A stretch of DNA of 64,000 nucleotides from a virus (Duplodnaviria; Caudoviricetes), in IMG/VR virus record IMGVR_UViG_3300037258_000653, positions 1,353 to 65,352 of that record; one strand, written 5' to 3'. The position numbers and the translations under genes were made by a program. Positions 4,393 to 33,874 of the stretch are shown here, piece after piece. Numbering within the stretch: position 1 is the first letter of the stretch; the number at the start of each line of letters is the position of its first letter. The notes beneath the pieces were generated by a model, which was not told the origin of the DNA, searched no databases, and saw only the letters and a program-made list of their open reading frames with translations.

Positions 4393-4394
4393 CC

Positions 4395-8550: not shown

Positions 8551-8668
8551 GGCTGCCTCAGTCAGCTATCCCAGCAGAAACCGAGTCAGTTGCAACCCCC
8601 CGGCAGGGGGGCAATGAATTTCATGAGTCTAGCCGCCCCGATGAGGCGGCAGAAGGAGAGCGGAACAG

Positions 8669-9852: not shown

Positions 9853-9873
9853 TGCCGGCCCGGCATCCAGCCG

Positions 9874-18092: not shown

Positions 18093-21056
18093 TCACCACC
18101 TCTGGCCGAAGGTCCGCTGGACGCTGTCGGTGCCGCCGCCGCCGGTCGCGCGGACCTCGGCGCGCAGCAGCCGCAGCAGCACGTTCATCAGCGGCGCGTC
18201 GCCGCCTTCGGGGCGGAGCACGACCTGCACCGGCCGGCCGGAGCCGCCGCCGTAGCCGGCCAGGGCCGGGAACCCGCCGCCGGCCAGGCCGGGCATGCCG
18301 GGGACGGAGGGGAGCATCGCGCGGCCCATCCGCTGCGCCGCGGCGCGCAGGACGCCGCGCATGGAGTCCATGCCGTTGGCCAGGCCCAGGCCGAGCATCT
18401 GGCCGCGCTTGTGGCCTTCCTTCGAGGGGGAGGCGATGCCGAGGGCGCCCTCGATGCCGCGCAAGATCGACTTGCCGACGCCCTCGGCGGTCCGGACGAC
18501 GTAGGAGACCTGCGACTCGATGCCGTGGATCAGGCCCAGCAGCAGGTCCTGGCCGGCGCGCAGCAGCAGCCGGCCGAACCCGGCGACCGCGTGGAGGATG
18601 TCGCCGGGGAGCCGGCGGAAGAATCCGGTGACGTCGGAGACCATGTGCTCCGCTCCGGAGACGAGCTCGCGCCAGTGCCGGGCGACCCACAGGACGGCCA
18701 GGCCGACGGGGCCGGTCAGGATGGCCAGGACCAGCGTCCAGTGCGACCTGATCCAGGCGATCAGGTCCCCGATGCCCTGGATCAGGGGATGGATCATGCC
18801 GCCGTCGATGATGTGCCAGGCCTCGACGCCGATGGCGGCCACGACTTTCCAGGCGTCTTTCCAGAAGTCGCGGAAGGCCTTGCAGTGCTTCCACAGCTCG
18901 ATGAAGCCGATGACCAGCAGGGCGATGCCCTCGACGATCAGCCCGATCGGGGAGACGAGGAACGCCAGGTTCAGGCCGTCCTGCGCGACCTCGGCCTCGC
19001 CGCTGGCGGCGGCCTGCTCCTCGGTCGCCGCGGTCATCAGGCCGAGCTTCCCGGCCAGCCATTTCGCGCCGGACCCGACGGACTCGATGCCGGACTTGGT
19101 GCTGCTCAGCGCCCCGGCGAGCTTGCTGCCCAGCGCCCCGGCCAGGACGCTGCCCAGCATGACGGCCAGCGCGGCCGACGCGATCTTGTTCTTGGCGACG
19201 ACGTTCAGGAACCCGGTGAGGGGCTTCAGGACGGCGGTGACGGTCGGCAGCAGGGCCATGCCGAGGGAGTCGCCCATGGCCTCGGCGGCCTTGGCCGCGG
19301 ACCCGAGCTGGAAGTTGGCCTCGCCCTGGATCTTGGACCAGCCCTTGACGTCGCCGCCGGCCTTCCGCGCGGACCCGGCGATCGCCGAGACGTTCTTGCT
19401 GAAGGTCGCGGCGTGCGGGCCGGTGAGCATCAGGGCGGTGTTCAGGCCAGTGGCACCGCCCATCATCTTGCCCAGCGCCGCGGCGAAGGTCTGCGCGTCC
19501 GGGTTCCCGGAGGCCAGCAGCTGGTTGAAGCCGTGGGCCTTGTTCGCGACGGTCGCGAACTGGGTGGCCAGGTTCCTGACCAGCGGCGGAGCGGCCTTGG
19601 TCGCCTGGTACCACGTGTTGTAGGAGGTCTTGCCGTCCAGGTAGGACTGAGCCAGTGCCCGCATGGTCGGCGGGAGCTTCGACAGCATCGTCTGCGCATC
19701 CGCGGCCGCGGACCGGGACTGGTTGAACGTCTTGAGCAGGACGACACCGGACTTGCCCATCCGGCTGGTGATCTGCTCGGCGAGGTAGCCGATGGTGCCG
19801 GTCAGGCCCCGCTTCCCGAGTTGCTCGGAAACATGGACCGAGGAGATGCCGAACTGGCTCATCTCCTGGATCGCGACGTTGTTGGGAGCCAGCAGGGAAT
19901 GGATGCTGCTCGCCAGGTCCTGGGACGCCTGCCGGGCTGACATGCCCTGGCTGGTCATGGTGGCGATCGCGCCGGCGACCTGCGCGAAGGAGATATGCGC
20001 CGACGCGGCGATGGGCAGCACCGCGGACAGGCTCGAGGCCAGGTCCTGCATGGTCATCTTGCCCTGGCCGACCGCCGTCACCATCTCGTTGGTGAAGCTG
20101 GTGGCCTGGCTCGCCTTCAGCCCGTAGGCGTTCAGCCCGGAAGTGACCGCGTTGGCCACGTCGGCCAGGTCGGCGCCCTCGGCTTTCGCGCCCTCCGCGG
20201 CGGCCTTCAGGACCGTCAGGCCCTCCGCGCCGTGAAATCCGGCCGATTCGACCATGTACATGCCGCTGGCCAGCTCTTTCGACCCGGTGTCCGCCGAGGA
20301 GGACAGGGCCAGGATGCCGCGCTGGACCAGGCCGAGATTCTTCGCTGACTCCCCGGCCGAAGTGACGAGCTTCGTGGTTTCCTGCTGGAGGTTCGCGGCG
20401 CCTTTCACCGCGACGCCCATGCCGATGCCGACGCCGAGGGCGGCGAGCTTCAGCTTGCTGCCCCATCCGCTGGACGCCTCGGCTGCCTCGTCCTGCGCGG
20501 CGGCGACCTTCCGGGTCCGGGACGCGACCTCGGTGTCGGCGGCCTCGACCCTGGCCAGGGCGGCGGCCTGCTCGTCGGCGGAGGCGCCGGCGGTGCCGGC
20601 GAGCTCGCGCAGCGCGGCTTCCTGCCGGGCGGTGGCCTCGGTCAGGGCGTTCTGCTCGGCGCGGAGCCGCACGGCGGCGGCGGCCTGCCGGTCCATGGCG
20701 GCGGTCTCGGTGTCGTATCCTTCGGCGGCTTCCGCGGCGGCCTGCCGCTCGCGGGCTGACTGCTCCAGCTCGGCCTGCCCGAGCCGGACCTGGGCGTCCA
20801 TGGACCGCAGCACCGCCGCGGTGAGCTCGTTGTTCGCGGCGGCGAGCTCCTCCGCGGTGGCGGCCCCTGATTTCTCGAGGCCGGTCACCCGGGCCTGCGC
20901 GGCGGCTGCCTCGTCCTGGGCGGAGGTGAACTCGCCCATGGCGGCGGTGACCTTGGCCGCCATTTCCTCGGCGCTGATCGCGGTCTCGTCGAATCCGGCC
21001 GTCGCGGGGGCGCTGTCGGCGCTGATGAGGATCTTGACGACGTTCGCGTCACCCAT
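18093..21056 (-). CDS. Tape measure protein
   Basis: 987 aa, Ala-rich; TP901-type core; FIELWKHCKAFRDFWK; LGIASPSK. Confidence 0.95.
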   Translation of the reverse strand: MGDANVVKILISADSAPATAGFDETAISAEEMAAKVTAAMGEFTSAQDEAAAAQARVTGLEKSGAATAEELAAANNELTAAVLRSMDAQVRLGQAELEQSARERQAAAEAAEGYDTETAAMDRQAAAAVRLRAEQNALTEATARQEAALRELAGTAGASADEQAAALARVEAADTEVASRTRKVAAAQDEAAEASSGWGSKLKLAALGVGIGMGVAVKGAANLQQETTKLVTSAGESAKNLGLVQRGILALSSSADTGSKELASGMYMVESAGFHGAEGLTVLKAAAEGAKAEGADLADVANAVTSGLNAYGLKASQATSFTNEMVTAVGQGKMTMQDLASSLSAVLPIAASAHISFAQVAGAIATMTSQGMSARQASQDLASSIHSLLAPNNVAIQEMSQFGISSVHVSEQLGKRGLTGTIGYLAEQITSRMGKSGVVLLKTFNQSRSAAADAQTMLSKLPPTMRALAQSYLDGKTSYNTWYQATKAAPPLVRNLATQFATVANKAHGFNQLLASGNPDAQTFAAALGKMMGGATGLNTALMLTGPHAATFSKNVSAIAGSARKAGGDVKGWSKIQGEANFQLGSAAKAAEAMGDSLGMALLPTVTAVLKPLTGFLNVVAKNKIASAALAVMLGSVLAGALGSKLAGALSSTKSGIESVGSGAKWLAGKLGLMTAATEEQAAASGEAEVAQDGLNLAFLVSPIGLIVEGIALLVIGFIELWKHCKAFRDFWKDAWKVVAAIGVEAWHIIDGGMIHPLIQGIGDLIAWIRSHWTLVLAILTGPVGLAVLWVARHWRELVSGAEHMVSDVTGFFRRLPGDILHAVAGFGRLLLRAGQDLLLGLIHGIESQVSYVVRTAEGVGKSILRGIEGALGIASPSKEGHKRGQMLGLGLANGMDSMRGVLRAAAQRMGRAMLPSVPGMPGLAGGGFPALAGYGGGSGRPVQVVLRPEGGDAPLMNVLLRLLRAEVRATGGGGTDSVQRTFGQRW

Positions 21057-21300
21057 CTAGGTCCTCATCTCCCTCCGGCAGGTCAGGGCCGTCGGGCGCG
21101 GCGAGCGCCTCGATGGCCAGGAGCTTGAGCAGGTCCGCGTCGTGCGCGCGCACTTCTTCGGGGAGCTTGCGGAACCGGTCGCAGAGGCCGAGGATCAGCC
21201 GGGCTTCGGCGAGCTCCGGCGGCTCCGTGACGATTTCGCCAGTACTGGAGGAGCCGCCTCCGAGGTCTCGCCACCGGGTGATGCGGGCTGCGAGGTAGGG
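21049..21300 (-). CDS. Tail assembly chaperone -1 frameshift extension (gpT-like)
   Basis: Start-less -1 frame GPYLAARITRWR..EPPELAEARLILGLCDRFRKLPEE..LLKLLAIE; its TGA overlaps the start of the tape measure gene. Confidence 0.65.
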   Translation of the reverse strand, partial: PYLAARITRWRDLGGGSSSTGEIVTEPPELAEARLILGLCDRFRKLPEEVRAHDADLLKLLAIEALAAPDGPDLPEGDEDLDG

Positions 21301-21644
21301 TCCACGCCCGCGACTCCCTCGGCCCAGCGGGTGAAGATCTCCGAGACGACGGGGAAGTCGAGGCTGACCAGGCCGTCGTAGTCGGTGGTGACGGGCTCGC
21401 CTTCGCTGGTGATGTTCCAGGAGAGGAGCCGGCCGCCGAGGATCCGGAAGATCTTCTCCATGTCATCCGGCGGCGGCATCGCGGCCAGTCCGCTGCCCTG
21501 GCCGGCGAGCTTGCCGGCCAGCTTCATGATCTCCAGGAACGCCCCGGTGCTGGCGCCCCGCGCCCGGACCTCCATGCCCGCCCAGGCGGTGTCGTCGCCC
21601 CAGGTCAGGTCGTAGATCTTCGGCGCGGCCTCGAATGTGGTCAT
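21195..21644 (-). CDS. Tail assembly chaperone (gpG-like)
   Basis: Between the major tail and tape measure genes; LLSWNI..GEPV. Confidence 0.8.
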   Translation of the reverse strand: MTTFEAAPKIYDLTWGDDTAWAGMEVRARGASTGAFLEIMKLAGKLAGQGSGLAAMPPPDDMEKIFRILGGRLLSWNITSEGEPVTTDYDGLVSLDFPVVSEIFTRWAEGVAGVDPTSQPASPGGETSEAAPPVLAKSSRSRRSSPKPG

Positions 21645-21686
21645 GTCCTCGTGTCTCCCTTGCGGCGGCGGGTTGCGGGGGGCGGG

Positions 21687-22100
21687 TCAGGACCAGGTCG
21701 GCGTGGCGCCGTCGGCCAGCGCGCCCTCGCTGCTCCACGTCAGGTCGGCGCCCGATGCGCGGCTGACGTCGTAGGAGCTGAAGTAGGCGTTGAAGCCGAG
21801 CTGCGGGTGCGTGGACGCTGTCGGGGAGACCACGACGCCGCGGATCACCGAGGTCGAGGAGATGGTCGACAGGACGGCGTGCGACATGTTGGCCGCGGGG
21901 TTGACGACGCCCTTGAGGCTGATCGTCGCGTCGGCCAGCAGCAGCAGCCGCTGCCGGGCGTAGACGTCGACGCCGGTGGTGTCCTGCTCGGCGCGGGGGG
22001 TCGCCAGGGAGAACTCGTTGACGTCGTCGCTGATGTTCTGCGGGGTCTGGGTCGCGTCGGCGACCGACACGGCCGCGCCGAGGCCTGAGGTCTTTGCCAC
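21687..22100 (-). CDS. Major tail (tube) protein
   Basis: AKTSGLG..ATPRAEQDTTGVD..RLLLLADATISLKG..LADGATPTWS; position. Confidence 0.8.
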   Translation of the reverse strand: MAKTSGLGAAVSVADATQTPQNISDDVNEFSLATPRAEQDTTGVDVYARQRLLLLADATISLKGVVNPAANMSHAVLSTISSTSVIRGVVVSPTASTHPQLGFNAYFSSYDVSRASGADLTWSSEGALADGATPTWS

Positions 22101-22108
22101 TGGTCAGC

Positions 22109-22525
22109 TCACCCTTTCCGGTGCTCGCCGGCCAGCTGGCCGGCGTGGTCTTCGAGGTCGTGCATCCATGCGTCGATCGAGGCGTGGCGGGTGAGGACGT
22201 GGCGGCCGCAGCGGATGAGCCAGCTGCCGCGGCGGGTGCGGTGCTCGGTGAAGCACCGCTGGCCGGGCCCGAACCGGAACACGGTCAGGCCGCCCTCGGC
22301 GGTGCGGCCGCCGAGCTCGGTGAAGGTGCGGCCGGACTGGCCGGAGCGGATCCACACGGCGCCGTCGGCGCCCTCGGCGGTCCGCTCGTCGAGGGTGATG
22401 TCCCAGCCGTAGCGCCAGTTGTCGCACTCCACCTGGTGGCAGGCGGCGATGACGTACCGGTCGTGCGGCATCCTGACGACGTAGTCGCGGGTCGCGGGGC
22501 CGCGGTTCAGGAGCGCTGCTGGCAT
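22109..22525 (-). CDS. Hypothetical virion-module protein
   Basis: Coupled ORF; AACHQVEC..WRYGW..PGQRCF..H. Confidence 0.65.
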   Translation of the reverse strand: MPAALLNRGPATRDYVVRMPHDRYVIAACHQVECDNWRYGWDITLDERTAEGADGAVWIRSGQSGRTFTELGGRTAEGGLTVFRFGPGQRCFTEHRTRRGSWLIRCGRHVLTRHASIDAWMHDLEDHAGQLAGEHRKG

Positions 22526-22528
22526 GGC

Positions 22529-23491
22529 TTACCCCCAGGGAGCGGTGTTGCGGTTGACCACCACGGCGTACGTGGCGGAGCTGAAGGTGCCGGCGGAGAT
22601 GACCCGCAGGTACTGCTGCACGGCCTGGGTGACCGTCCCGGACCCCGCCGAGCTGCTGGCGATCGCGGAGCCGCCGGCGGTCGCGGCCACGCTGAACGAG
22701 GTCCCCGCCGGGCTGACGACGTAGTACGTCGTCCCGGCCGAGAACCCGCCGGGCAGGCTGTAGCCGGGGACGCCCGGCGCGGCCAGGGCCACGGGCGTGC
22801 CGGCGGCCAGGGCGCTGCCCGCCGCGGTGAACACCGCCGGGGTGCCCAGCGTCGCGGTGAACGGCCCGCTGAATGCCTGGACGCGCTGCGTCGCCGGCGC
22901 GGCGGTGAACGCGGTGAACGCGGCCAGCGCCGACCAGGTGGCGTTGTCGGGTGACTGCTGGACGGTGACGGTGACGCTCGTGCCGGTGAAGCTGGTGAGC
23001 TGCAGGTAGCACTGCGCGCCGAACAGCGTCCCTGCGCTGTTATTCAGCGCCGCGCCGTTGGCCGCGCCGGCGTCGGTGCGCAGGCCGGGGGTGAGCATGA
23101 GCCCCCAGTCCAGGGCGAATCCCTGGCCGTGCCCGTCGACCTTCATGGTCAGGCCGCCGTCGCCGGCGCGGGAAGGCGGGTAGTCGGCCTGCTTGGCGTT
23201 CAGGCACGCTGCGATGCTGCCGACGGCCATGGGCGGCAGCAGCGCGGTCAGCAGGACGTCGGTGCGGGGCAGCGCGGACAGCACCGGGTGGGCGTTCGCC
23301 GCGTCGAAGAACGAGGTGAACGACATGCTCCCGTCGAGCAGCGCGGCCAGCCGGGAGTGCGCGGACTGGGTGATGTCGGTGGCGTCCAGCAGGCCCATCC
23401 CGGCGGCGATGGAGTCCAGCGCGCTGATGTTCCCGGACAGGTCGTAGCCCCCGACGAGGAACCGGGCGCCGAGCCCGGACTGCTTGCTCAC
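22529..23491 (-). CDS. Tail-tube-like structural protein with an inserted beta domain
   Basis: N-terminus SKQSGLG resembles 21687-22100; insert shared with the fibre gene. Confidence 0.7.
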   Translation of the reverse strand: MSKQSGLGARFLVGGYDLSGNISALDSIAAGMGLLDATDITQSAHSRLAALLDGSMSFTSFFDAANAHPVLSALPRTDVLLTALLPPMAVGSIAACLNAKQADYPPSRAGDGGLTMKVDGHGQGFALDWGLMLTPGLRTDAGAANGAALNNSAGTLFGAQCYLQLTSFTGTSVTVTVQQSPDNATWSALAAFTAFTAAPATQRVQAFSGPFTATLGTPAVFTAAGSALAAGTPVALAAPGVPGYSLPGGFSAGTTYYVVSPAGTSFSVAATAGGSAIASSSAGSGTVTQAVQQYLRVISAGTFSSATYAVVVNRNTAPWG

Positions 23492-23940
23492 GGGCTCAGC
23501 CCCCAGAGGTCGTCAACTACAACTGGCAGGGTTATCTGCAGGACGCGGAACTGCTTGCCTTCCTGGGTCACGTAGAGGGGCTCGGCGCGCAGGCTGAACA
23601 GGTCGATCTCGCGGACCAGGCCGCCGAGGGTGAAGTTGCCGGAGTACTCCGCGAGCAGGGCGCTGGCCGCGGCCAGGATGGCGGGGTCGATGCCGTCGAG
23701 GGGCTTCTGCGTCATCGGGTCGAAGATCATCACCAGGAAGGTGATGGTCCCGCTGACCGAGCTGAGCCCGGACTTGCTGCCGTCGGGGACGACCGGGCCC
23801 AGGGTGATGGAGCAGGACAGGGCGCTCCCCGGCGAGCTCCGCGGCTCGTGGGTGTTGACCCGCGCGAACAGGTTGAGCTTCGAGGCGTGGGATTCCAGGG
23901 CGTCGAACAGCGCCTTCGCGGCCGCGGCGTCGAAGGCCAT
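23488..23940 (-). CDS. Tail terminator-like protein
   Basis: FARVNTHEPRSSPG..YSGNFTLGGLVREIDL..ITLPVVVDDLW; position. Confidence 0.7.
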   Translation of the reverse strand: MAFDAAAAKALFDALESHASKLNLFARVNTHEPRSSPGSALSCSITLGPVVPDGSKSGLSSVSGTITFLVMIFDPMTQKPLDGIDPAILAAASALLAEYSGNFTLGGLVREIDLFSLRAEPLYVTQEGKQFRVLQITLPVVVDDLWGLSP

Positions 23941-24347
23941 CAGGCACCGCCGCCGAGCTTCTCGATGAGGGCGGCCATCTGGGCCCGGGCGAACGGGGTG
24001 ACCTGCCGGCGCATCCGCAGCCGGGTGCGCCGGAAGGTGTGGTAGCCGCGGAACCCGGTGGACTGGTTGCGCTGGCTGGTGCCCTCCAGCCACGGCCAGG
24101 AGTACTCGCCCTTGCGGATGCCGCCGAAAATGATCATCCCGTCGCCGTCGCCGGCGATGCTGACGCCGCCGGCGGCGGCGCCGGTGCCGCCCCGCCCGGA
24201 CTTGTCCATCCGCTCGGTGTCCAGCTGGATCCAGGTCTGGCCGATCTCGGCGACCTCGACGGCCAGGGCGCGGCCGAACTGGCGGACGGCGGCCGCGGCG
24301 CGGGCGTCGAACACCGGGCCGCTGATCGAGACCTTCGTGGTGGCCAT
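23940..24347 (-). CDS. HK97 gp10-like neck protein
   Basis: YSWPWLEGTSQRNQSTGFRGYHTFR; position. Confidence 0.7.
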   Translation of the reverse strand: MATTKVSISGPVFDARAAAAVRQFGRALAVEVAEIGQTWIQLDTERMDKSGRGGTGAAAGGVSIAGDGDGMIIFGGIRKGEYSWPWLEGTSQRNQSTGFRGYHTFRRTRLRMRRQVTPFARAQMAALIEKLGGGA

Positions 24348-24940
24348 CAGCCCGCTCCCCCGGCTGGCGGGAAGCCAGGCGGCCGGCGCGGCGGCCCGGC
24401 CGGGCGCGTGCCGGCGGCCGGGGCAGCGGCGGACGGCGGGACCATGCGCTCCGCGCCGGCCGCCAGGTCACCGCCTGCTGGCGGCCCGCCCTCGGTGCCG
24501 TTCCCTGCCGGAGCGGCGGCGGTCGCCGGCGCACGGGCGGCGAGCAGCGCGGCGACGTGCCTCTTCATGTCCTGGTGCCGGGCGTCCGCGGCGTCTGACT
24601 GCCGCTTCTCGGCGGCCGCGGCGTGCTCAGCGACCTTCGCCGAGGTTCGCTTCGCGGCGTGCCGGGCGGTCAGCACGCCGAGGACCGCGGCGGACAGCGG
24701 CACGCCGGTGAGGATCACCAGCGTGATCGCGGCCCGGCCGCCGGGCGACGCCGGGCCGGCGTCGCAGCCGGCGGTCGCCGCGGTGCCCACCGCGCAGTAC
24801 AGGCCGTGCCAGAACGACAGGTGCCACGCCGCTGACAGCAGCCACCCCGCGGCCGCCAGGTAGCCGACGGCCCCGGCGGCGGCCCCGGCGCGCCTCGTCG
24901 TCACCGCGGCCCGCGCGGCCGCCAGGCGCCGGGCCGTCAT
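24347..24940 (-). CDS. KcsA-like two-TM ion-channel pore domain with a degenerate filter
   Basis: TM1-SFWHGLYCAVGTAATAGCDAGPASPGGR-TM2 aligns by eye to the KcsA pore helix/filter/TM2; ATGA overlap. Confidence 0.7.
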   Translation of the reverse strand: MTARRLAAARAAVTTRRAGAAAGAVGYLAAAGWLLSAAWHLSFWHGLYCAVGTAATAGCDAGPASPGGRAAITLVILTGVPLSAAVLGVLTARHAAKRTSAKVAEHAAAAEKRQSDAADARHQDMKRHVAALLAARAPATAAAPAGNGTEGGPPAGGDLAAGAERMVPPSAAAPAAGTRPAGPPRRPPGFPPAGGAG

Positions 24941-25380
24941 GTCAGTCCCCCGGCGGCGCAGACCAGCGCGCCGAGGACCAGCAGGCCGTAGGTCTGGGCG
25001 ACGGCCAGGGCGCCGCGCTCGGGCCGCAGCCACGCGATCACCCCGGCCTCGGCCGCGGTCAGGGCCAGCGACACCGCCACGGCGGCGGTGCCTGCCCAGG
25101 CCAGGAACGGCAGCGCGGGGATGATCGCCCCGGCCGCTGAGGCGATGCCGCAGGCCAGGGCCGGGGCGGCCCGGCGGCCGTTGGCCAGCCACATCGGGCC
25201 GGCCATTCCGACGAGCTCGGCCAGGCCGTCGGACAGCGCGGCGTGCCAGATGCCGCCCCGTCCCTGCCGGGCGATGATCATCCCGGCGACCAGGCCGAGG
25301 ACGAGGATCGCGCCGTCCGCGGCGCCGAGGACCATCGCGGAGCGGGTGCCGCCGGGCAGCGGCGGCGCGGCGGCCGTCAC
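24937..25380 (-). CDS. Minimal VIT1/CCC1-family transporter-like membrane protein
   Basis: VLGAADG..LGLVAG; LAELVGMAG..WLA; A.GAIIPALPF; five hydrophobic segments. Confidence 0.7.
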   Translation of the reverse strand: MTAAAPPLPGGTRSAMVLGAADGAILVLGLVAGMIIARQGRGGIWHAALSDGLAELVGMAGPMWLANGRRAAPALACGIASAAGAIIPALPFLAWAGTAAVAVSLALTAAEAGVIAWLRPERGALAVAQTYGLLVLGALVCAAGGLT

Positions 25381-25733
25381 GGCGCGCCGCCGCAGGTGAC
25401 CTCGTCGCCGGGCTTGGCGACCCGGTCGCGGGGCGGCAGCTCGTACAGCGGCAGCCCGCAGCACGGCGTCATGCCGTCGCCGTCGTCCGGCGGGCAGGCG
25501 TGCGCCACGATGACCCTGCGGCCGGTGATCGCCGGCTGGCCGTCGTCGTCGCGGGCCATCCGCAGCTCGACGTCGCGGCCCTCCAGCTCCGGCGGCGCGG
25601 CGGGGTCGTCCAGGTCGTGCCAGTGCGCGCCGGTGCCGTCGGCGTCCAGCGACGGGCCGAGGGTGACACCGGCCGGCCACACCATGCCCATCCCGAGGTA
25701 GGCACCGGGGATGAGGACGCGGTAGGTGGTCAT
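25377..25733 (-). CDS. Hypothetical protein
   Basis: RBS aggagg; HACPP..TPCCG..VTC motif. Confidence 0.6.
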   Translation of the reverse strand: MTTYRVLIPGAYLGMGMVWPAGVTLGPSLDADGTGAHWHDLDDPAAPPELEGRDVELRMARDDDGQPAITGRRVIVAHACPPDDGDGMTPCCGLPLYELPPRDRVAKPGDEVTCGGAP

Positions 25734-25749
25734 CGGGGCTGCCTCCTGG

Positions 25750-26892
25750 TCATATGGCGTCGATCCGGGCCATGCGCCCGCAGGCGGTGCGGGCCTCGTC
25801 CCACAGCTCGGCGAGGGCCGCCCCGGACGCGGGCACCGCTGACTCGCCGGAGCCGGTGACGCGGGCGTAGCCGGAGGTCTCCTGGAGGATCTGGACGGAT
25901 GCCTCGGCGATGGCCAGGTCGCGGATCAGGCTGGGGTACCGGTGCTTGGACACGGCCGTGGCGGTGTCCCAGGACTGGGCGGTCGTGCCGAGGAAGCCGC
26001 GCTGCACCGTCAGGGACCGGTAGGCCCAGATGTCGTCGCCGGAGTGCTCCTGCACCGGGGTGCCGTTAAAGCCCCGGGTGACCGTGGCCACGGCGGCCTG
26101 GACGCGCAGGACGAGCATCTGCTCGGTGCCCGCCAGCAGGACCTCGCCCTGCGCCGGCGCTGTGCCGGTGCCTGACCACTGGAGCTGGGTGTCGCCGACG
26201 CTGGCGGTGGTGCAGCCCGAGCCGGCCATGTCCAGCCCGGTGTCGGCGCCCTGCCGGCCGGACACCAGGATCCGCTCGCCGAGGTAGGGCGCGATCAGCC
26301 CGGCGTGGCCCAGGGCGTCGCCGGGGAACGGCGCCTCGCCGCGGCCGTAGCCGAGGATCAGCAGGTCCCCGACGCCGACCGGCCCGGCGGAGGCGACCTC
26401 GATCGTGGTGTCCGAGGAGCCGATCCCGGCGTTGAGGGTGGTGACCTGGTCAGCGTCGGCGGTGAAGTTCCACGTGCCCGTCGCCATGATCGCGTTCTGC
26501 GGCGTGGAGGAATTCCCGCCGAACGTCGCCGACCCGGACCGGTCCAGCTCGATCGACGTCCAGGGGAAGCCGGGCCGCTTGTTCGCCGGCCGCAGGAAGC
26601 ACTGGTCCAGGCCTATGGCCACGCCGCCGGAGACGAGCGAGGTGAGGCACAGGACCTCGTCGCGGCGCAGCTTCAGCTTCCACGGGGACACCCACTGGTA
26701 GTTCGGCCAGTCCCACCACTTCGTCCCGTCCCACGGGTAGTAGAGCCGGTGGAACTCGCCCTCGATCTTCCGGGACGCGGTGGTGATCGCCCGGTCGGAC
26801 CTGCCCTGGATATCGGCGGTGATCCCGTCGCGGAAGTCGATCGCGCCCTGGACGTCCTCCCGCGAGCAGTACGCCGGCTCGTAGACCGTCAC
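25750..26892 (-). CDS. Head-to-tail adaptor
   Basis: YCSREDV..RAITTASRKIE..PSLIRDLAIAEA; downstream of the capsid genes. Confidence 0.75.
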   Translation of the reverse strand: MTVYEPAYCSREDVQGAIDFRDGITADIQGRSDRAITTASRKIEGEFHRLYYPWDGTKWWDWPNYQWVSPWKLKLRRDEVLCLTSLVSGGVAIGLDQCFLRPANKRPGFPWTSIELDRSGSATFGGNSSTPQNAIMATGTWNFTADADQVTTLNAGIGSSDTTIEVASAGPVGVGDLLILGYGRGEAPFPGDALGHAGLIAPYLGERILVSGRQGADTGLDMAGSGCTTASVGDTQLQWSGTGTAPAQGEVLLAGTEQMLVLRVQAAVATVTRGFNGTPVQEHSGDDIWAYRSLTVQRGFLGTTAQSWDTATAVSKHRYPSLIRDLAIAEASVQILQETSGYARVTGSGESAVPASGAALAELWDEARTACGRMARIDAI

Positions 26893-27482
26893 GGCCAGGT
26901 CACCGTCCAGGCCTCCCCGTCCGGCACCGCGCCGAGCCCGGCCAGGTCATGCAGCTCGCCCCACGACCAGACCGCGCCGGACGGGTCGACGGCGAGCGCG
27001 TGCGGGCCGCCGGGCAGCTCGGCGCCGATGATCAGCCCGGCGGCCCCGGTCACGTGAAGCCCGGATAGCTCTTCGAGGAGGTCATGGGGCATCACCTCCT
27101 CGAAGGCGGGCCGGCAGCCCGCCAGGCCCGCGGCGGCGGCCGCGCGCAGCGCGCCGGCGATGCTGACGCCCTGATCCGCGGTGCCGCCGGCAGCGAAGTG
27201 CAGGGCGAGCACGTCGTCGCCGGTGACCCGCTGGCCGGCCAGCCGCAGCGAGGCCGCGAGGGCCTCGGCGCAGCAGCAGTCGGCGTCCGCGGGGGCCAGC
27301 GCGAGGCCGCGCCTGGTGCCGTGCTTGCGGGAGGTCGTCTTGTGCTTCTTGGTGCCGTCTTCCCGGTGCTTGGCCGGCTGCATGGGGTGGGTGGCGAGGC
27401 CGCCGGGCAGCTTCTGCTGGCGCAGCACGGGGATTGTCGGGGGCTTGGCGGTCTTCCCGACGCGGACCCTGAGCTTGGTCAT
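26889..27482 (-). CDS. Hypothetical protein, possibly a papain/C39-like Cys-His protein
   Basis: Basic N-terminus; DCCCAEALA..GPHALAV..VWSWG. Confidence 0.5.
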   Translation of the reverse strand: MTKLRVRVGKTAKPPTIPVLRQQKLPGGLATHPMQPAKHREDGTKKHKTTSRKHGTRRGLALAPADADCCCAEALAASLRLAGQRVTGDDVLALHFAAGGTADQGVSIAGALRAAAAAGLAGCRPAFEEVMPHDLLEELSGLHVTGAAGLIIGAELPGGPHALAVDPSGAVWSWGELHDLAGLGAVPDGEAWTVTWP

Positions 27483-28687
27483 GCGGGCTGCCCGAGGACG
27501 ACGACGGGGCTGACCTGCTGCCCGGAGCTGGTGGTGGTCTGCGACCGGATCCAGTACCGGCCGTCCAGCCGGGCCTTGGTCCGGAAGCTGGTGGTCGCCG
27601 ACCCGAACCCGGCGCCGCGCGGGGAGGTCTCGACGAGCATTTCCATCCGGTCGGCGATGACGTAGTTCCGCAGGTCGGCGAGGATCATGTCGCCGGTGGT
27701 GCCGACGGCGGGCTGGTGGTCGGTGATCGCTGCGGGAATGCCCAGCAAGGACGGGCTGGTGTGGGTGCCGTCGCCGAGCTGCAGCCAGTCCGACAGCGTG
27801 ACCGCCGCCGACGCCGGCGCCGTCCCGACGGTCAGGTACATCTCCAGGATCTGGTCCAGGACGGCCGAGGAGATCAGCCAGCCCACGCCGGGAACCCCGG
27901 CGGTGAGGCCGGCCTGCTTGGCGGCCGGGTGCAGGCCCTTGAGCATGCCGACGACGTCGGCCAGCACGACCTCGTCCGAGGTCTGCCGCTGCACGGTCAG
28001 AGCGCAGCCGGCGGCCGCCAGTGCCTCGGGCTCCCCGGCGCCCGTGCCGGAGCAGATGAACGCGTCGTCCTCGGTCCAGGCCAGGCCCCGGCCGATGACC
28101 CGCGCCAGCAGGTCCCCCAGGGCGCCCGCGGCGTCGTCTACGAGCTCGTTGGGCACCTCAGACAGCAGCGCGGCGAGCTTGCGGGCCTCCATGACCTCCC
28201 GCTGCACCTGCGGGCTGCTGGCCGCGATCGGGGCTCCGGTCTCGGTCCAGCCGAAGGTCAGGCCGCCGAGCGCCTGCCGCCCCGAGGCCTGCGAGGAGTT
28301 GTCGATGGAAGGCAGGCCGTAGCGCAGCGACGACGACGCCAGGACCATCGCCTGCGGCCGGACGATGGCCTCGGTCATGTAGGCCATGACCTCTGACCGC
28401 AGCGTCTCGGGCACCAGGAAGCCGCCCTGAGCGGGCACCGACTCGGAGAACCCGGCGTTGCGCGGCCGGGTCATCGCGTTCGCGATCTGCTGCCGGGCGG
28501 TGTCATCGCCGGGGTCGGTGACGGCGCGCATGTACGTCCCCCACGACCGGGCCCACGGCATGCCGTCCAGGACGGCGCCGGGGGCGTCGGCGCGGTTCAG
28601 CGCGGCCTTCCAGCTCCCGGGCCCGGGCAGTTCCCCGGAGACCGCGAGGCCGGCGAGCACGTCGCCGGCGTCCTGCGTGGTGGTCAT
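27479..28687 (-). CDS. Second HK97-fold capsid protein paralogue
   Basis: RPRNAG..GGFLVPETLRSE; EARKL..VPNEL; GTGAGEPE; DLRNYVIADR; RLDGR. Confidence 0.85.
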   Translation of the reverse strand: MTTTQDAGDVLAGLAVSGELPGPGSWKAALNRADAPGAVLDGMPWARSWGTYMRAVTDPGDDTARQQIANAMTRPRNAGFSESVPAQGGFLVPETLRSEVMAYMTEAIVRPQAMVLASSSLRYGLPSIDNSSQASGRQALGGLTFGWTETGAPIAASSPQVQREVMEARKLAALLSEVPNELVDDAAGALGDLLARVIGRGLAWTEDDAFICSGTGAGEPEALAAAGCALTVQRQTSDEVVLADVVGMLKGLHPAAKQAGLTAGVPGVGWLISSAVLDQILEMYLTVGTAPASAAVTLSDWLQLGDGTHTSPSLLGIPAAITDHQPAVGTTGDMILADLRNYVIADRMEMLVETSPRGAGFGSATTSFRTKARLDGRYWIRSQTTTSSGQQVSPVVVLGQPA

Positions 28688-29392
28688 CCGTCTCTCCCCA
28701 TGGCGATCCCGGGCGCGGGCGTGACCACGTCACGCGGCGCGCGCCACCCGCAGAACCCGCAGAAGGCGGTCACTGCCGCGCCGGCGTCGGTCGACGGCGC
28801 GCCCGTCAGCGGCTCGCCGTCCCGGGGGCAGGCCAGGCCGCCGGTGGCCATCACCTCGGACCTCCACCAGCCGAACTCGCGTTCCTTGTCCTCGAAGATC
28901 GCCGCCAGGCCGTACCAGGCGCCGGTCGCGGGCTTGGCGTCAGCGGCCACCGGCGCCCTTCCCGGTCCCCGGCGGCCCCGCCGCCTTCGGGGCCTTGGCG
29001 GCCGCCGGCGCCGCGGCGGCGCTGTCCCCGGCATCCGCCGTGCCGGGCTCTTCTGCCGGGGCGGCCTCGGGGTCCTCCGCGGCGGCGTCCGCCAGGCCGG
29101 CCGCGGCGGCCGCTGCAGCCTCGGCGGCGGCCGCGGTGTCCTGCGGGGCTCCGTCCGTGGTGTCCGCCGGTGACGGGCTCGCGCTCCCGTCACCGGCGGA
29201 GCCTGTCCCGGTCTCCGAGGCCGACACGGAGATGACCCGGTCGCCGATGGTCGCGATTCCGGTGCTGCTGATCTTCGGCATGTCCTGGCCTTCCTGGGGG
29301 GTCTCGGGAGCGGGGATGCTCGCCCGGCATTCCGGGCAGCACGGGGCGCCGGCCGTGTAGAGGCAGCCGCAGCTGCCGCACCGCCAGCGCAC
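28684..29392 (-). CDS. Two small hypothetical genes (28684-28950; 28940-29392, Zn-ribbon plus Ala/Pro-rich tail)
   Basis: CPRDG..CGFCG; CGSC..CPEC. Confidence 0.55.
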
Positions 29393-29394
29393 GG

Positions 29395-30263
29395 CTAGCA
29401 GCCGACCGCGGTCTGGGCGGCCAGCGTGGTGGTCGTGCCGGACCACTTCAGGTACCAGCCGGCGGGCAGCCGGAAGGTGATGACCTGCCCGGCGGTCACC
29501 GGGCCGCTGGGCGACACCGCGGCGTCGGACGCCGCCGAGGTGTGCCCGATCGTCACCGTGGTGGCGGTGCCCGCCGTGCCGACGGTCAGGTACACCTCGT
29601 AGTCCCGGCTGGTGTCGGCCAGCTGCCTCGCCGTGCCGTTGACCGCGCCGATGCTCGCGATCACCGGCGCCGACGCCGCGGTGCTCGACCCGGCGCCGAG
29701 CGGCGCGGTCACCGCGAACGGGCTGACGTACTGGCCGTCCTTGCGCAGGTACTCGCTGACCTGGTCGGCGGTCTCGCCCGCGCCGCCGGTCTGCCCGGCC
29801 GCCGCGCTGATCTTCAGGTCCGCTGTCATCGCCGTCCCCCTTACGAGCCCGACCCGGACAGGGGCCGGAGCATGTCCGGGGACCGCTGCACGAGCAGGTC
29901 GTGGGGGATCGCGGTGACCAGGCCGCCGGCGGCGACGGACACCTCGAGGTACTCGGCGCCTGACGGGAGCTCCGCGGCGTCGACGTACACCATCGCCGCG
30001 CCGGACGCGATGACGATCGTCGAGGCCGCCGCCTGGCTCTGCGCGACCCACTGGGCGCCGCCCCCGGTGGAGGTGTTCGTCCAGTAGCTCGTGATCACCG
30101 GCAGCGCCGTGGGGGAGCCGTTGTATGAGCCGGCGGACTTGAGGGTGAACGTGTCGTTGCCGGTGAGCACGAACGTGTAGCCCGCGCAGTCCTTGACGGA
30201 CAGCAGGGTGCCCGCCGCGATCGCGGCGGGGTTGAACAGCCGTCCCGCGCCTTCCATCCCCAT
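29395..30263 (-). CDS. Two probable capsid decoration proteins (29395-29829, 29841-30263)
   Basis: Beta-rich, Thr/Ala-rich ORFs immediately after the major capsid gene, with RBSs. Confidence 0.6.
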
Positions 30264-30336
30264 GTCGGGGCCTCCTTCGTTGCCGTGGCCGGGTGGCCGG
30301 CGGACTGCCGGCGGCCAGGTGGCCGCCGGCAGGCGG

Positions 30337-31836
30337 TCAGGCCGGGGTGTTGAGCAGGACGACGGGCGACAGGGTGCTCGCGGACCCGTTCGCCGGGGTG
30401 ATCGGCGACTGCTGCCAGATCCGGCCGTCCATGCGCTGGATGACCCGGTAGGCCACCAGGTCGGACGCGAACAGGTACTCCTCGCTGGTGGCGATCTGCA
30501 TCGACTGCCGGTCGCCCAGGAGGTAGTAGGAGAGGTCCACGAAGGACAGCGCGCCGGCCGTGGTGGTGTTGCCGCTCGCGGAGGACGGCATCTTCTCGGA
30601 GACGATCAGCGGGCGGCCCATGAGCATGTAGCTCTGGCCGTCGCCCTTGCTGCCGCCCGGCGCGCCCAGCGCCTGGAAGCCCTGCAGCCACAGCGGCGGC
30701 GCGACGTTGCTGGCCGCCATCTGCAGCAGGCTCGCGATCACGTCCGGCGAGCACAGCCACACCGCGCTGCCCAGGCTGGCCGGCCACATCCGGGAGTACA
30801 TGGCCGCGATGTCGGCGAACGCGACCACGTAGTCGGTGCCCGAGTTGATCTTCACGGCGGCCGGGCTGTTGAGGAAGCCCTGCGGCTCCGCAGTCCCGTT
30901 GCCGTTGATGAAGGCCATGTCCTCGAACCACGCCATGGCCCGCGGGAAGAAAGCGTTGAACCACCGGTCAAGCGGCGTGATCGCGTCCTGCAGCAGCTCG
31001 TTGGGGATCGTGGTGTAGGCCGTGAGCTTGCGGGCCTCCAGCTCGACCCTCCCCCACTTCGGCGCGGACGCCGCGAGGGTGCCGCCCTCAGCGGTCCAGT
31101 AAGCCGCGACGCCGCCGTACACGTTGCTCGCGTGGCTGGTGTCGTCGATGGCGGGCAGCGGCACCCGCAGGCTGTCCATCGGGATGACCGTCGACCGGGG
31201 CCGGACCACCGAGGTCTCCAGCGACAGCATGAGGATCTCCGAGCGGAGGATCTCGGGGACCAGGTAGCCGCCCTCGGACGGCAGCCGCTCGGCCATGCCC
31301 GCGTTCCGCGGCCTCGTCAGCGCGTTGAACAGGGCCTGCTTGTAGCCCTTGATCTCCTCCAGCCGCGCGGTGTCGCCCTGGTCCTTGGCGACGTGCTCCC
31401 CCTTCCACATCGTGTAGAGGAAGGAGCGCATCGACTCGGCGTACGGCGCGTCGTCGAGGACGGCGCCGTACGCCGCGTCGTCGAACGCGCCCTGCACCCG
31501 CACCTGGTGCTTGGCGTCGGCGACCCGGGACCTGGTGATCGCGCGGTCGCGGCGGACGTCGCGGGCGGTCAGCTGGGTGGTGCCCGGCTTGAAGCCGCGC
31601 GGGGAGTAGCCGCCGTCGGCCTGGGCCTGGAGGAACTGCTGCATGCCGAGCTGCATTTCCTCCCGCATCTGCTGGCCCAGCTCGGCCTTCTTGCTCTCCA
31701 TTGCCTTGACCATGTAGGCCTGGGTGAACTCGCCGAACTTGCCGGGCTCCGTCAGCAGGCCGGCCAGGCGGCCGTCGTCGTTGAGGAGCTCCTCCATCTG
31801 CTCGGCGGTCTCGGGGATCGCGGTCTGGCCCTTCAT
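30337..31836 (-). CDS. Major capsid protein (HK97 fold)
   Basis: EGGYLVPE, WTAEG, LEARKLTAYTTIPNELLQD, FINGNGTAEPQG, RMDGR. Confidence 0.95.
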   Translation of the reverse strand: MKGQTAIPETAEQMEELLNDDGRLAGLLTEPGKFGEFTQAYMVKAMESKKAELGQQMREEMQLGMQQFLQAQADGGYSPRGFKPGTTQLTARDVRRDRAITRSRVADAKHQVRVQGAFDDAAYGAVLDDAPYAESMRSFLYTMWKGEHVAKDQGDTARLEEIKGYKQALFNALTRPRNAGMAERLPSEGGYLVPEILRSEILMLSLETSVVRPRSTVIPMDSLRVPLPAIDDTSHASNVYGGVAAYWTAEGGTLAASAPKWGRVELEARKLTAYTTIPNELLQDAITPLDRWFNAFFPRAMAWFEDMAFINGNGTAEPQGFLNSPAAVKINSGTDYVVAFADIAAMYSRMWPASLGSAVWLCSPDVIASLLQMAASNVAPPLWLQGFQALGAPGGSKGDGQSYMLMGRPLIVSEKMPSSASGNTTTAGALSFVDLSYYLLGDRQSMQIATSEEYLFASDLVAYRVIQRMDGRIWQQSPITPANGSASTLSPVVLLNTPA

Positions 31837-33293
31837 GCGTGTGCTCCTCTCAGAGCCGTGCGGATGGACTCCAGGTCGGGCCTGGAGTGGTTCTCGCCGA
31901 CGCTGTCGCTGGTGTCCGGCTCGTAGTCGGGGTTGACGCGCTTCATGAGGCGCTGGAGCAGGGCCTTCGCCTCGCTGGCGTTGGTCAGGCCGTCGGTCTG
32001 CGGGAGTCGCGACAGGGCGTTCTCCACGCCGGCGGCGTTCGGCGGGCTGGACGGCGTGTACTTGTAGGGCAGCGCCCAGGCGTCCTGGGTGGCCTTGTCG
32101 CCGGCCTTCTTCCCGGCGCAGATCCCGCCGTAGAACGCGGCCGGGTCGTCGGACTCGGCCCCGTTGTGCCAGGCCTTGCTGGCGTCCCAGTCGCTGTCGT
32201 CCACGCCGCCGCCGGCCGCGGCGATCTCCTCGCGGATCAGCGCGCGGAGCTGCTCCGCGTCCAGGCCGTCGCCGGCGGGCAGGGGCTTGCCGGGCAGGCT
32301 CTTGAGCTGCTTGCCGTCCTTCGACCAGTAGTCGTGGTCGGTGTCGCCCTCGGGGCAGGCGTCGCAGTCGCCGTCGCCGTCGGGGTCGGTGCGCTCGTGG
32401 TCGCCGTGCATGTCCTTGCCGGCCGCCCGGGCGATCTCCTCGCGGGCGATGGCCCGGGCCGCGTCCGCGGTCAGGGCGTCGGCCGGGGCGTCCGGGGTGT
32501 CGGGGGTGGCCTCGTCGCCGTTGTCGCCGCCGTCGCCGTCGTCGGGGGCGTTCCCCGACCCGCCGCAGGAGGGGCAGGTGCGGCCTGCCTTGCCGGTACG
32601 CGGGTGCTTCAGCCGGCCGGTGCCGCCGCAGGTCTTGCAGTCCCCGCCCGAGGCGGCGGCGGGCAGCTCGCGGAGCGCGGCCGCGATCCGGCTGGGCAGC
32701 TGCCAGGCGGCGACGTCCATGCCGGCCGGCAGCTCGGCCCGGCCGGCGCCGACCGTGTCGGCCAGGCCCGCGTCGACGGCTTCCTGCGCCTTGTACCAGG
32801 TCTCGGCCTTCATGGCGGCCCGCCAGGTCGCGGAGTCGCCGGCGGCGGACCGCTCGGCGTAGATGTCGGCCAGGTTCGCGGACACCTCGTCGAGGGTCTG
32901 CGCGGTCTTGGCCATCTCGTCGGCGTTGCCCTGGCAGCAGCCGAACGCGTCGTGGATCATGATCATGGCGCCGGGCTGGATGACGCGTTCCTGCCCGGCC
33001 TGGAAGATGACGCTGGCGATGCTGGCGGCCAGGCCGTCGGCTATGGTGGTCACCGGGCCGGGGTGGTTGCGGATCACGCTGCCGATCGCGATGCCGTCGA
33101 AGACGTCGCCGCCGCCGGAGTTGATGTGGACCTCGATCGCGCCGCTCACGCCGGACATCTGGCCGGCGAAGTCAGCCGAGGAGATCCCGCCGAACCAGCC
33201 GCCGCCCCCGATGTCGTCGTACACGTCGACCCGGGTCACGCCGCCGCCGGCGTCGCCGCGGATCCGGCACTTCATCGGGTATGCGTGCTTCAC
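31833..33293 (-). CDS. ClpP-like prohead protease with extended C-terminus
   Basis: HINSGGGDVFDG, GLAASIAS, MIHDA, ETWY..EAVDAGLAD; CxxCxGxG x2 insert. Confidence 0.9.
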   Translation of the reverse strand: MKHAYPMKCRIRGDAGGGVTRVDVYDDIGGGGWFGGISSADFAGQMSGVSGAIEVHINSGGGDVFDGIAIGSVIRNHPGPVTTIADGLAASIASVIFQAGQERVIQPGAMIMIHDAFGCCQGNADEMAKTAQTLDEVSANLADIYAERSAAGDSATWRAAMKAETWYKAQEAVDAGLADTVGAGRAELPAGMDVAAWQLPSRIAAALRELPAAASGGDCKTCGGTGRLKHPRTGKAGRTCPSCGGSGNAPDDGDGGDNGDEATPDTPDAPADALTADAARAIAREEIARAAGKDMHGDHERTDPDGDGDCDACPEGDTDHDYWSKDGKQLKSLPGKPLPAGDGLDAEQLRALIREEIAAAGGGVDDSDWDASKAWHNGAESDDPAAFYGGICAGKKAGDKATQDAWALPYKYTPSSPPNAAGVENALSRLPQTDGLTNASEAKALLQRLMKRVNPDYEPDTSDSVGENHSRPDLESIRTALRGAHA

Positions 33294-33874
33294 CGTGCAC
33301 CTGCCAGTGCTAGGGCGCGGTCCCAGCCGGACGCCGGCCGGGGCGCGGCATCGGCGGGGGCGGCGCTGAACGGGTAGGTCGTGCGCTGCGCGGCGTGCTG
33401 CGCGGACACGCCGGCGAAGGTGACCGGGACCGGGCCGATCCGGCCGACGGGGTCGGGGTCGCCGGGGTCCTGGTAGCAGAGGGTCATGTGGGCGGTGAAC
33501 CCGTGGGCGGAGGCGATCTCGATGCCGGCGGCGGCCAGGGCCTCCTCGGCGTCGCGGCGCAGGACGTCCAGGGCCGGCGAGTCGACGATGGCGACGATCG
33601 CGTCGCCGCCGTCGCCGCCGGTGAACCGGGCGTGCCCGGACACGGTGGCCGCCAGCGGGGGCCGGGCGGCCAGCGACGCGGCGGCGCTGTTCACCGCGGC
33701 GGCGGAGATGCCGGCGGAGTCGCCGAGGTAGGCGATCGTGACGTGCATGTCGGCCGGGTCGAGGCCGCCGTCGACGGCGAGCTGCTCCGCGACTTCCGGC
33801 GGCGGGTACAGGGCGATCATGCAGGCGCCGGTGAAGTCCGGCTGGCTGCCCGCTTGCTGCTCCTGGCCGGTCAT
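33290..33874 (-). CDS. 2H phosphoesterase (2'-5' RNA ligase / Acb1-like)
   Basis: Two HxT motifs, MHVTIAYLG and FTAHMTLCY; overlaps both the portal and protease genes. Confidence 0.85.
   Translation of the reverse strand: MTGQEQQAGSQPDFTGACMIALYPPPEVAEQLAVDGGLDPADMHVTIAYLGDSAGISAAAVNSAAASLAARPPLAATVSGHARFTGGDGGDAIVAIVDSPALDVLRRDAEEALAAAGIEIASAHGFTAHMTLCYQDPGDPDPVGRIGPVPVTFAGVSAQHAAQRTTYPFSAAPADAAPRPASGWDRALALAGAR

Follow-up and report, generated by a model that had tools for sequence, protein, structure and literature searches.

Two overlapping genes with homology to VIT1/CCC1 metal transporters and KcsA-type channels in the late operon of a metagenomic tailed phage

Results

Two overlapping membrane-protein genes between head and tail genes

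The 64,000-nucleotide stretch of DNA analyzed here (the window) covers positions 1,353 to 65,352 of IMG/VR virus record IMGVR_UViG_3300037258_000653 (Duplodnaviria; Caudoviricetes). In its late operon, on the minus strand, lie two small genes: P0001 (24937-25380, 147 amino acids), which its homology marks as the membrane-spanning core of a divalent-metal transporter of the VIT1/CCC1 type and which we refer to as a mini-VIT, and P0002 (24347-24940, 197 amino acids), which by the same kind of evidence encodes a KcsA-type pore subunit, that is, a P-loop channel subunit with two transmembrane helices (2-TM). A first-pass annotation, made from the DNA letters alone, had proposed a translationally coupled channel and transporter pair here; its coordinates proved exact and the overlaps of stop and start codons could be read directly. 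The GTG start of P0001 overlaps the upstream stop as GTGA, the start of P0002 overlaps the P0001 stop as ATGA, and the TGA of P0002 overlaps the ATG of the next gene (p135) at 24347, where the junction reads TGATG. Because of these overlaps, the two proteins would be made together with the late structural proteins and thus expressed late.

Several observations bear on the reality of the two genes. Read in the expected frames, P0001 had a GC content at third codon positions (GC3) of 0.95 and P0002 one of 0.92-0.99, with changes in the frame plot falling exactly on the borders of the two genes. An antisense open reading frame (ORF) at 25243-25701 on the plus strand, picked by a crude gene caller, was rejected as a real gene because its GC content at second codon positions (0.74) is typical of a shadow frame and because the minus-strand products have conserved homologues. 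In close pairs of homologues, the ratio of nonsynonymous to synonymous substitution rates (dN/dS) was 0.03-0.19 for the mini-VIT, as tight as for the neck gene (0.07-0.15), and 0.12-0.47 for the channel; for the window copies against their relatives the ratio was unusable because synonymous differences were near saturation (proportion 0.39-0.62). Altogether, we consider it very probable that P0001 and P0002 are real genes of these two families.

P0002 as a KcsA-type channel subunit

P0002 matched the Pfam family Ion_trans_2 (PF07885) over residues 29-91 with 25.2 bits (cut-off 22.5, E 1.5e-5), and the same family was matched by all six aligned family channels, with the highest score (61 bits) for the copy at the related locus L002, which has a canonical TVGYGD filter. 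When a profile of the six members was compared with solved structures, the best match was full-length KcsA (3pjs, E 2.8e-9), the pH-gated K+ channel of Streptomyces lividans, in an alignment that extends from TM1 through pore helix, filter and TM2 to the beginning of the cytoplasmic helix and that has the register proposed in the first-pass annotation. P0002 shares with KcsA (3pjs, 3eff, 1f6g) the layout of two transmembrane helices, pore helix and filter, and its cytoplasmic C-terminal helix is likewise long; the tetramer predicted for it (see below), with contacts in filter, TM2 and C-terminal bundle, may be a further likeness. It differs from KcsA in the filter itself and in a Pro/Ala-rich tail. 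The end of the pore helix and the filter of P0002 are encoded at 24761-24805 (minus strand; residues 46-60, GLYCAVGTAATAGCD).

In the AlphaFold2 (AF2) model of the P0002 monomer, helices at residues 3-52 and 66-136 are joined by a loop (53-65) with moderate confidence. The conserved cytoplasmic helix (24533-24643, minus strand; residues 100-136, with the pattern EKR...AD.RH..M.RH) reached a predicted local distance difference test (pLDDT) value of 85-95 and forms a four-helix bundle in the predicted tetramer. This four-copy model of residues 1-140, of a kind already suggested in the first-pass annotation, scored 0.63 against 0.00 for the best of three controls. Of proteins solved as pairs of one chain, 20 of 30 attained that mark, compared with 1 of 23 among those solved as single chains. 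At least 94% of contacts agreed between runs, partner pLDDT was at least 80, and the chains touched one another at the pore helix, the filter, TM2 and the C-terminal helix (inter-chain contacts from about residue 87 to 136). Since KcsA tetramers have already been solved, the score may reflect this likeness only and is no proof of a tetramer.

The family became accessible only by way of a neighboring gene, p380, for which a search found six related viral contigs, and by way of alignments. A word-based protein search with P0002 gave no relatives, single-protein scans of viral sequences gave none either, and neither tblastn with the two proteins nor blastn with the region 22000-29000 found a match among GenBank phages. 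A channel profile run against a large protein collection retrieved 107 proteins at E<=1e-5; about 29 of these were close family members (122-241 amino acids, all metagenomic), and next, at E ~1e-18, came 2-TM channels of actinobacteria that bear a TrkA_N domain. By profile, the nearest cellular relatives of the P0002 family are thus these TrkA_N-bearing channels rather than KcsA itself.

P0001 as a VIT1/CCC1-type transmembrane core

On its own, P0001 scored 16.3 bits against Pfam VIT1 (PF01988), with a match restricted to TM1-2, and this is below the cut-off of 28.1. VIT1 was matched at E<=1 by six of the six P0001 family members, however, with the best score (43.3 bits, in two stretches) for the copy at L004, and in a wider mini-VIT family of 58 members 51 matched at E<=1e-3 (best 1.8e-16), although P0001 is not one of the 51. 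The Pfam scans proposed in the first-pass annotation thus gave a match above the cut-off for P0002 itself and, for the transporter, matches at the level of its family. An exhaustive comparison of the mini-VIT profile with 1.84 billion representatives gave 291 matches at E<=1e-3, of which 130 reached E<=1e-10; the matches listed were mostly 135-175 amino acids long, with some shorter fragments. Ten of them that were looked up were all metagenomic, and two carried the JGI name "VIT1/CCC1 family predicted Fe2+/Mn2+ transporter".

Residues conserved in at least 90% of the 58 members are, in P0001 numbering, G19, D22, G23, G29, M59, P88, P91 and R119. The 58-member profile matched the EgVIT1 crystal chain 6iu3_A with E 2.5e-12 in two stretches, which pair profile positions 7-61 with 6iu3_A residues 12-69 (TM1-2) and positions 59-143 with residues 139-226 (TM3-5); residues 70-138, the site of the cytosolic metal-binding domain, have no counterpart in the mini-VIT. 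EgVIT1 Asp43 is thereby paired with Asp22 (codon 25315-25317), Met80 with Met59 (codon 25204-25206) and Gly44 with the Gly after Asp22, given a chain offset of 21, which was adopted since it puts D, E, M and Y at 43, 72, 80 and 175. The GxxDG motif in TM1 and the Met in TM2 to which the first-pass annotation had pointed are therefore near-invariant features of the family, and the absence of the metal-binding domain that it noted holds as well. In VIT1 proteins, Asp43 and Met80 stand at the cavity entrance, where they coordinate metals and discriminate between them (PMC7714665, consulted in part). According to the same part of that source, the domain is also absent from VIT groups IA, II and III of prokaryotes and from plant VTL proteins, so that it does not strictly define VIT1/CCC1 and its loss is shared with the mini-VIT.

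The mini-VIT differs from EgVIT1 in its size of only about 140-160 amino acids, in the position of a Glu residue (see below) and in having Ser or Thr in place of Tyr175. The A1 profile gave no match in PDB, only the 58-member profile reached EgVIT1, and 6iu3 was the sole solved VIT1-family member recovered. The AF2 model of P0001 has five helices, with low confidence (pLDDT 58.8).

Canonical and Cys/Cys filters in one channel family

The filter of P0002 reads TAGC-D, as the first-pass annotation had seen, and is one residue shorter than TVGYGD. Cys49 and Cys59 stand at the positions of KcsA Trp68 and Tyr78 and a Gly stands at that of Glu71, while the inner Thr56 and Gly58 are kept at the positions of Thr75 and Gly77; these are the KcsA numbers that we take the aligned positions to have. 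P0002 lacks the K+ signature T-[VI]-G-[YF]-G-D, and for this reason belongs to the fold family without being established as a K+ channel. The signature is missing from 20 of the 33 sequences of a family census, made up of the window copy, 29 representatives and the copies from L004, L012 and L018. In the census, 13 filters were of the form T[VI]G[YF]GD, 19 were T[VA]GC[DN] and one was TTDGAD. The residues at the Trp68 and Tyr78 positions covary: the canonical set has W/Y, all 19 T[VA]GC[DN] sequences have C/C, and no mixed form was seen.

The history of this change was followed on a tree of 39 rows, from which the L004 copy was left out and to which six cellular outgroups were added. The C/C rows require one change on this tree (branch support 77/74), so that the Cys/Cys covariation probably arose in a single event, and the clade is deeply diversified. 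The Cys/Cys filter is kept under purifying selection in the close pairs measured (dN/dS 0.12-0.47). The window channel joins that of locus L033 by a long-branch placement, with a branch of 0.69 for the window copy.

A recurrent membrane-protein cassette in related phages

Both genes were found in five of six close relatives, in the same slot between homologues of p118 and p135. All five carry a third gene between mini-VIT and channel (L002 4934-5284, L004 6399-6938, L005 7872-8411, L006 6250-6780 and L007 5974-6498), and the three genes overlap from stop to start. The product of this middle gene is a membrane protein of 116-179 amino acids with a conserved C-H-x2-G-C-W ... C-x-x-H pattern; it belongs to no Pfam family and falls into unnamed viral and actinobacterial clusters of the ESM Atlas (Uroviricota, Actinomycetota). 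In the sixth relative, L003, hidden Markov models (HMMs) detected none of the three genes in the ~790 base pairs before the contig end. There, other small membrane ORFs occupy the cassette slot (7177-7961), one of which is cut by the contig end and has a hydrophobic helix after a His-rich N-terminus; the resemblance of this ORF to DUF1003 (BLASTP E 0.24) was not significant.

The 58-member alignment was too diverse for scanning loci, and smaller alignments were used instead. A mini-VIT motif scan gave 15 viral loci, all but one of which were new. The channel adjoins the mini-VIT in four of the 14 new loci (L009, L012, L013 and L018) and the middle gene is present in five (L008, L009, L013, L018 and L020), while L012 has a 99-residue ORF in which the middle-gene motif was seen by eye only. 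Four of the new loci lie among homologues of the structural genes of the window at other positions; in L008, for example, the mini-VIT stands between a capsid-like gene and p380. In L021 it follows a protease gene, a capsid gene and four small genes. A reverse scan with a channel alignment gave nine loci, of which seven were on known contigs, one was cut at a contig end and one was L033, which has the middle gene and the channel and no mini-VIT within 3 kb. With the window counted, the mini-VIT co-occurs with the channel in 10 of 11 assessable channel-bearing viral loci. Profile matches to both folds and the recurrence of the two genes in related phages, the two points on which the first-pass annotation had staked its reading, were thus both observed.

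Against this background it could be argued that the window copies are decaying, non-functional remnants of a three-gene cassette. The middle gene is missing from the window, P0001 scores 16.3 bits where the L004 copy scores 43.3 and has lost the Glu of the family motif G-E-W, and P0002, on its long branch, lacks a conserved GHCAD segment and has exchanged V for A in the filter. Both reading frames are intact, however, with the high GC3 values given above, and all near-invariant family residues and both cysteines of the filter clade are kept. Furthermore, several of the apparent losses (TAGC, or no Glu in G-E-W) are shared by L002, P0183, P0174 and L033, and would therefore be marks of a subfamily rather than of decay. 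We regard decay as very unlikely.

In more distant phages, the mini-VIT stands in another setting (L010 5030-7941, L011 5121-6857, L012 5393-7844 and L020 5513-7700). A PLD-like gene (PLDc_2) lies upstream of it in L010, L011 and L012; downstream follows a DUF1003 membrane protein (L010, L011) or a canonical K+ channel of 111 amino acids, and then an Rv2525c-like glycoside hydrolase (77.4 bits in L010, 91.6 in L020 and, weakly, 21.3 in L012). The block in these four loci is possibly a lysis region. Two further partners of the mini-VIT, of 150 and 140 amino acids in L014 and L017, had no significant likeness to DUF1003 (E 1.7 and 3.1). Two genes downstream of the partner in L014 is a gene for 922 amino acids with LAGLIDADG and homing-endonuclease matches (7784-10552), and at the corresponding place L017 has a gene for 573 amino acids without such matches (7729-9450); this difference suggests that the L014 gene may carry an intein-like insertion.

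The position of the mini-VIT and its partners directly beside the hydrolase in L010, L012 and L020 raises the question of whether the two proteins are holin-like, that is, scaffolds that only lesion the membrane for an endolysin, or time its action, and carry out no selective transport. A hydrophobicity screen of L012 flagged no further membrane protein among the neighboring genes. In the window, the tape measure is the one multi-TM protein besides P0001 and P0002, and no separate lysis cassette was recognized there. On the other hand, near-invariant Asp and Met residues and a canonical K+ filter in 13 of 33 channels are not expected of a holin, L010 and L020 also have ordinary small holin candidates with one or two transmembrane segments, and in the L008 record an endolysin-like gene lies ~11 kb from the mini-VIT. 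The record of the window, moreover, is ~80% complete, so its own lysis genes may simply be missing. A pure holin function is therefore, in our judgment, quite unlikely.

As to the wider distribution, tblastn with the mini-VIT and the middle gene found no match in 50,697 GenBank phage records, while the canonical L002 channel matched 23 of these records at <60% identity, among them those of phages BillNye, Myrna and Phabba. Two single-motif scans of species-representative bacterial genomes, which had low sensitivity, ended with 0 of 68 and 0 of 75 stretches confirmed. Members of the mini-VIT family were found on no contigs other than viral or metagenomic ones, and the phages that carry the cassette are so far seen only as metagenomic viral contigs. 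We are inclined, by a small degree, to describe the interval as a mobile cassette of membrane-protein genes, in a version with two genes, that is carried by high-GC siphophage-like phages.

The late operon and the rest of the record

The IMG/VR record is linear, has 65,352 base pairs and is ~80% complete according to CheckV; GC content is 70-78% in the region scanned. The late operon runs on the minus strand, with the head genes upstream and the tail genes downstream of the two-gene interval. In order of transcription it holds a portal gene (33871-35280), a Clp-protease fusion (31833-33293), a first capsid-family gene (30337-31836; Phage_capsid PF05065, 1.4e-46), four small genes, a second capsid-family gene that marks the head module (27479-28687; Phage_capsid 5.9e-23, phrog_10), then p197, p380 and p118 (25377-25733, 118 amino acids), the last of which forms the upstream flank and is kept beside the cassette in relatives. 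P0001 and P0002 are followed by p135 (23940-24347), p154 and the major tail protein gene that marks the tail module (22529-23491; phrog_9522, 9.1e-15), beyond which lie a tape-measure-sized gene and fibre-like genes, all on the same strand. The first-pass annotation had placed the pair between adaptor and neck genes. This agrees in part with the capsid-family gene upstream and the tail gene downstream and with a likeness of p135 to HK97 gp10 in ESM Atlas features and structure, which we treat as a lead only; the two genes upstream of P0001 had no family match in Pfam and PHROG searches.

The same organization bears on whether the pair is a moron, i.e. lysogenic-conversion cargo expressed from the prophage that would aid the metal tolerance or K+ homeostasis of the host or exclude superinfecting phages. 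A precedent is gp15 of HK97, a membrane moron within the tail operon that excludes superinfecting phages. A tyrosine integrase (PF00589, 53.9 bits; G000:C1:621-1136) is encoded in the terminal part of the record that lies upstream of window base 1, and the phage is therefore temperate; in L003 the slot after p118 is filled by other small membrane ORFs, the position of the cassette varies between phages as it would for mobile cargo, and the GC content of the interval (0.778) exceeds that of its neighbors. Yet a scan of 21000-31000 for consensus E. coli-type signals, ill-suited to high-GC actinobacteria, found 0 promoter-like and 0 terminator-like sites, the tight overlaps with both flanking structural genes argue for co-translation with the late genes, and no copy in a lysogen appeared in the two motif scans of bacterial genomes. 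We thus consider a moron function unlikely.

Several other features of the window stand apart from the cassette. Two Phage_capsid genes are present in a single late operon, with four small genes between them, and this doubling seems conserved because L004 and L005 also give a second, weak capsid match upstream. Beyond the tail genes lies a Tad2-like gene (Thoeris anti-defence 2, PF11195; 84.9 bits) at 10665-10943 on the minus strand. A plus-strand block at 2505-8096 encodes an HNH/HTH protein, a DUF5710/ArdA-like protein, a PhdYeFM-like stretch, a protein with PAPS-reductase and DUF3440 domains and a GNAT and ParB_N-like protein, and is probably anti-restriction or DNA-modification cargo. At 37681-38424 (minus strand) a protein joins DUF6221 to a C-terminal FHA domain. 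Among sequencing runs, the DNA was seen only in the probable source, a soil metagenome, and no RNA run was listed as containing it.

Discussion

A proposed model of late cation and metal flux

The observations above can be combined into a model for the function of the interval. P0001 and P0002 would be co-translated with the late structural proteins and inserted into the host cytoplasmic membrane, and the distribution of charges in their loops fits a topology with the N-terminus inside. P0002 would form a tetramer held together by its cytoplasmic helix bundle. Since its filter retains Thr56 and Gly58 on the inner side but has lost the outer sites and the aromatic cuff, P0002 would be expected to pass cations without K+ selectivity. 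It might then conduct in the way that NaK- or CNG-type pores do. The NaK filter, TVGDG, passes cations non-selectively. P0002 resembles such channels as a works-like analogy, in that its filter retains the inner part (Thr, Val/Ala, Gly) and is altered in the outer half, but TVGC(D/N) differs from the NaK motif and the comparison is one of motifs alone. P0001 would act as a VIT1-like dimer in which Asp22 and Met59 move ions of the Fe2+/Mn2+ type out of the cytoplasm against H+. The net effect of such a late flux would be to lower or re-set the membrane potential and the cytoplasmic metal level, and its outcome might be that lysis timing is tuned or that entry of further phage DNA is blocked. 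This model is our best explanation of the interval, held with a confidence slightly above even. Judged from the sequences, we also lean, to a similarly small extent, towards both proteins being active in transport; its weakest step, a late flux that tunes lysis or blocks superinfection, is doubtful. In favor of that step, endolysin-like genes lie directly beside the cassette in other phages, and the record here has neither another multi-TM protein, the tape measure apart, nor an endolysin recognizable in searches for six families. The roles in membrane potential, exclusion, lysis timing and Fe/Mn handling that the first-pass annotation had listed are accordingly to be read as what the cassette may do.

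A number of points weigh against this model. The monomer models are poor (mean pLDDT 67 for P0002 and 59 for P0001), and Foldseek found no match at E<=0.001 with either, a result that is uninformative given their low confidence. P0001 itself falls under the Pfam VIT1 cut-off, Glu55 of the mini-VIT aligns with EgVIT1 Gly76, one helical turn off Glu72, and P0001 has PMW in place of the family G-E-W motif; because of the first and last of these, and because there is no trace of the middle gene in the window, the window copies may be under relaxed constraint. No endolysin that could tie the pair to lysis was recognized in the phage itself: six endolysin families (PF08924, PF01510, PF01471, PF01551, PF00877 and PF01183) all gave 0 matches in the record. 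A common depolarizing role is doubtful because 13 of the 33 sister channels have K+-selective filters and would not be depolarizing alone, and the conservation of Asp and Met points to genuine metal transport. Finally, infection by a Rhodococcus phage turns the VIT exporter of the host down (PMC10986025, as far as that source was consulted), which is the opposite direction to that of an exporter carried by the phage.

The cysteines of the filter allow a further explanation, in which the Cys/Cys clade, P0002 included, is a K+-channel scaffold re-tooled to a transition-metal pore lined by thiols and carboxylates, as one part of a phage-specific, three-part conduit for Fe, Mn or Zn. Four Cys59 and four Asp60 residues would ring the outer mouth, with Cys49 in place of the Trp of the aromatic cuff, and the conduit across the host membrane would consist of the channel, the mini-VIT and, in most relatives, the Cys/His-rich membrane protein encoded by the middle gene. 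We consider this improbable. If true, tailed phages would have a kind of auxiliary system that is not known from them, and P-loop channels a new selectivity class.

Relation to known viral channels and transporters

Virus-encoded minimal pores are known from the chlorovirus and algal-virus channels of the Kcv type. They are housed in an internal membrane of the virion and work during entry. A tailed phage is without an internal virion membrane, and a channel of such a phage must therefore act from the host membrane, late. Kcv-type channels are a precedent for altering the membrane potential of the host, in the parts of the literature consulted, but have no close sequence relationship to P0002. 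Closer by host are the K+ channel genes described in tailed phages by Greiner et al. (2018, PMC6163359), which include those of Streptomyces phage BillNye, Mycobacterium phages Myrna and Phabba and vibriophages, and whose function is given there as unknown. Like P0002, these are small 2-TM Ion_trans_2 proteins of tailed phages including actinophages, but with 117-259 amino acids and canonical filters as far as described there, and P0002 finds none of them by tblastn. The words 'VIT' and 'iron' are absent from the main text of that paper, to which the check was confined. VIT1 genes are carried by giant viruses (metagenomes of nucleocytoplasmic large DNA viruses; PMC7162819, consulted in part); they are virus-encoded like the mini-VIT but stem from viruses that infect eukaryotes, and the two are likened by description only.

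In the parts of the literature consulted, no description of a phage VIT or of a pairing of channel and VIT was found, and the remark in the first-pass annotation that it knew of no description of the pair in phage morphogenesis operons holds to this extent, although phage K+ channel genes as such had already been published. Its identification of the two proteins and their co-occurrence are supported by our analysis, but it had missed that the cassette normally has three genes, that sister channels have canonical TVGYGD filters and that VIT proteins without the metal-binding domain were known (PMC7714665). What appears to be new here is the phage cassette of mini-VIT and channel; phage K+ channels and VITs without the metal-binding domain were known before.

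Significance

The channels of these sister phages form a natural series in which canonical TVGYGD filters and TVGC(D/N) or TAGCD filters stand on one small scaffold, and which lends itself to the question of how P-loop selectivity is rebuilt. A VIT1 core of about 140 amino acids that keeps the residues of the metal pathway is attractive for structural and transport work. Taken together, the data point to a recurrent, translationally coupled membrane cassette in the late operons of soil phages of actinobacterial type, and this cassette could reveal whether phages manipulate the metal and cation balance or the membrane potential of their host at the end of infection.

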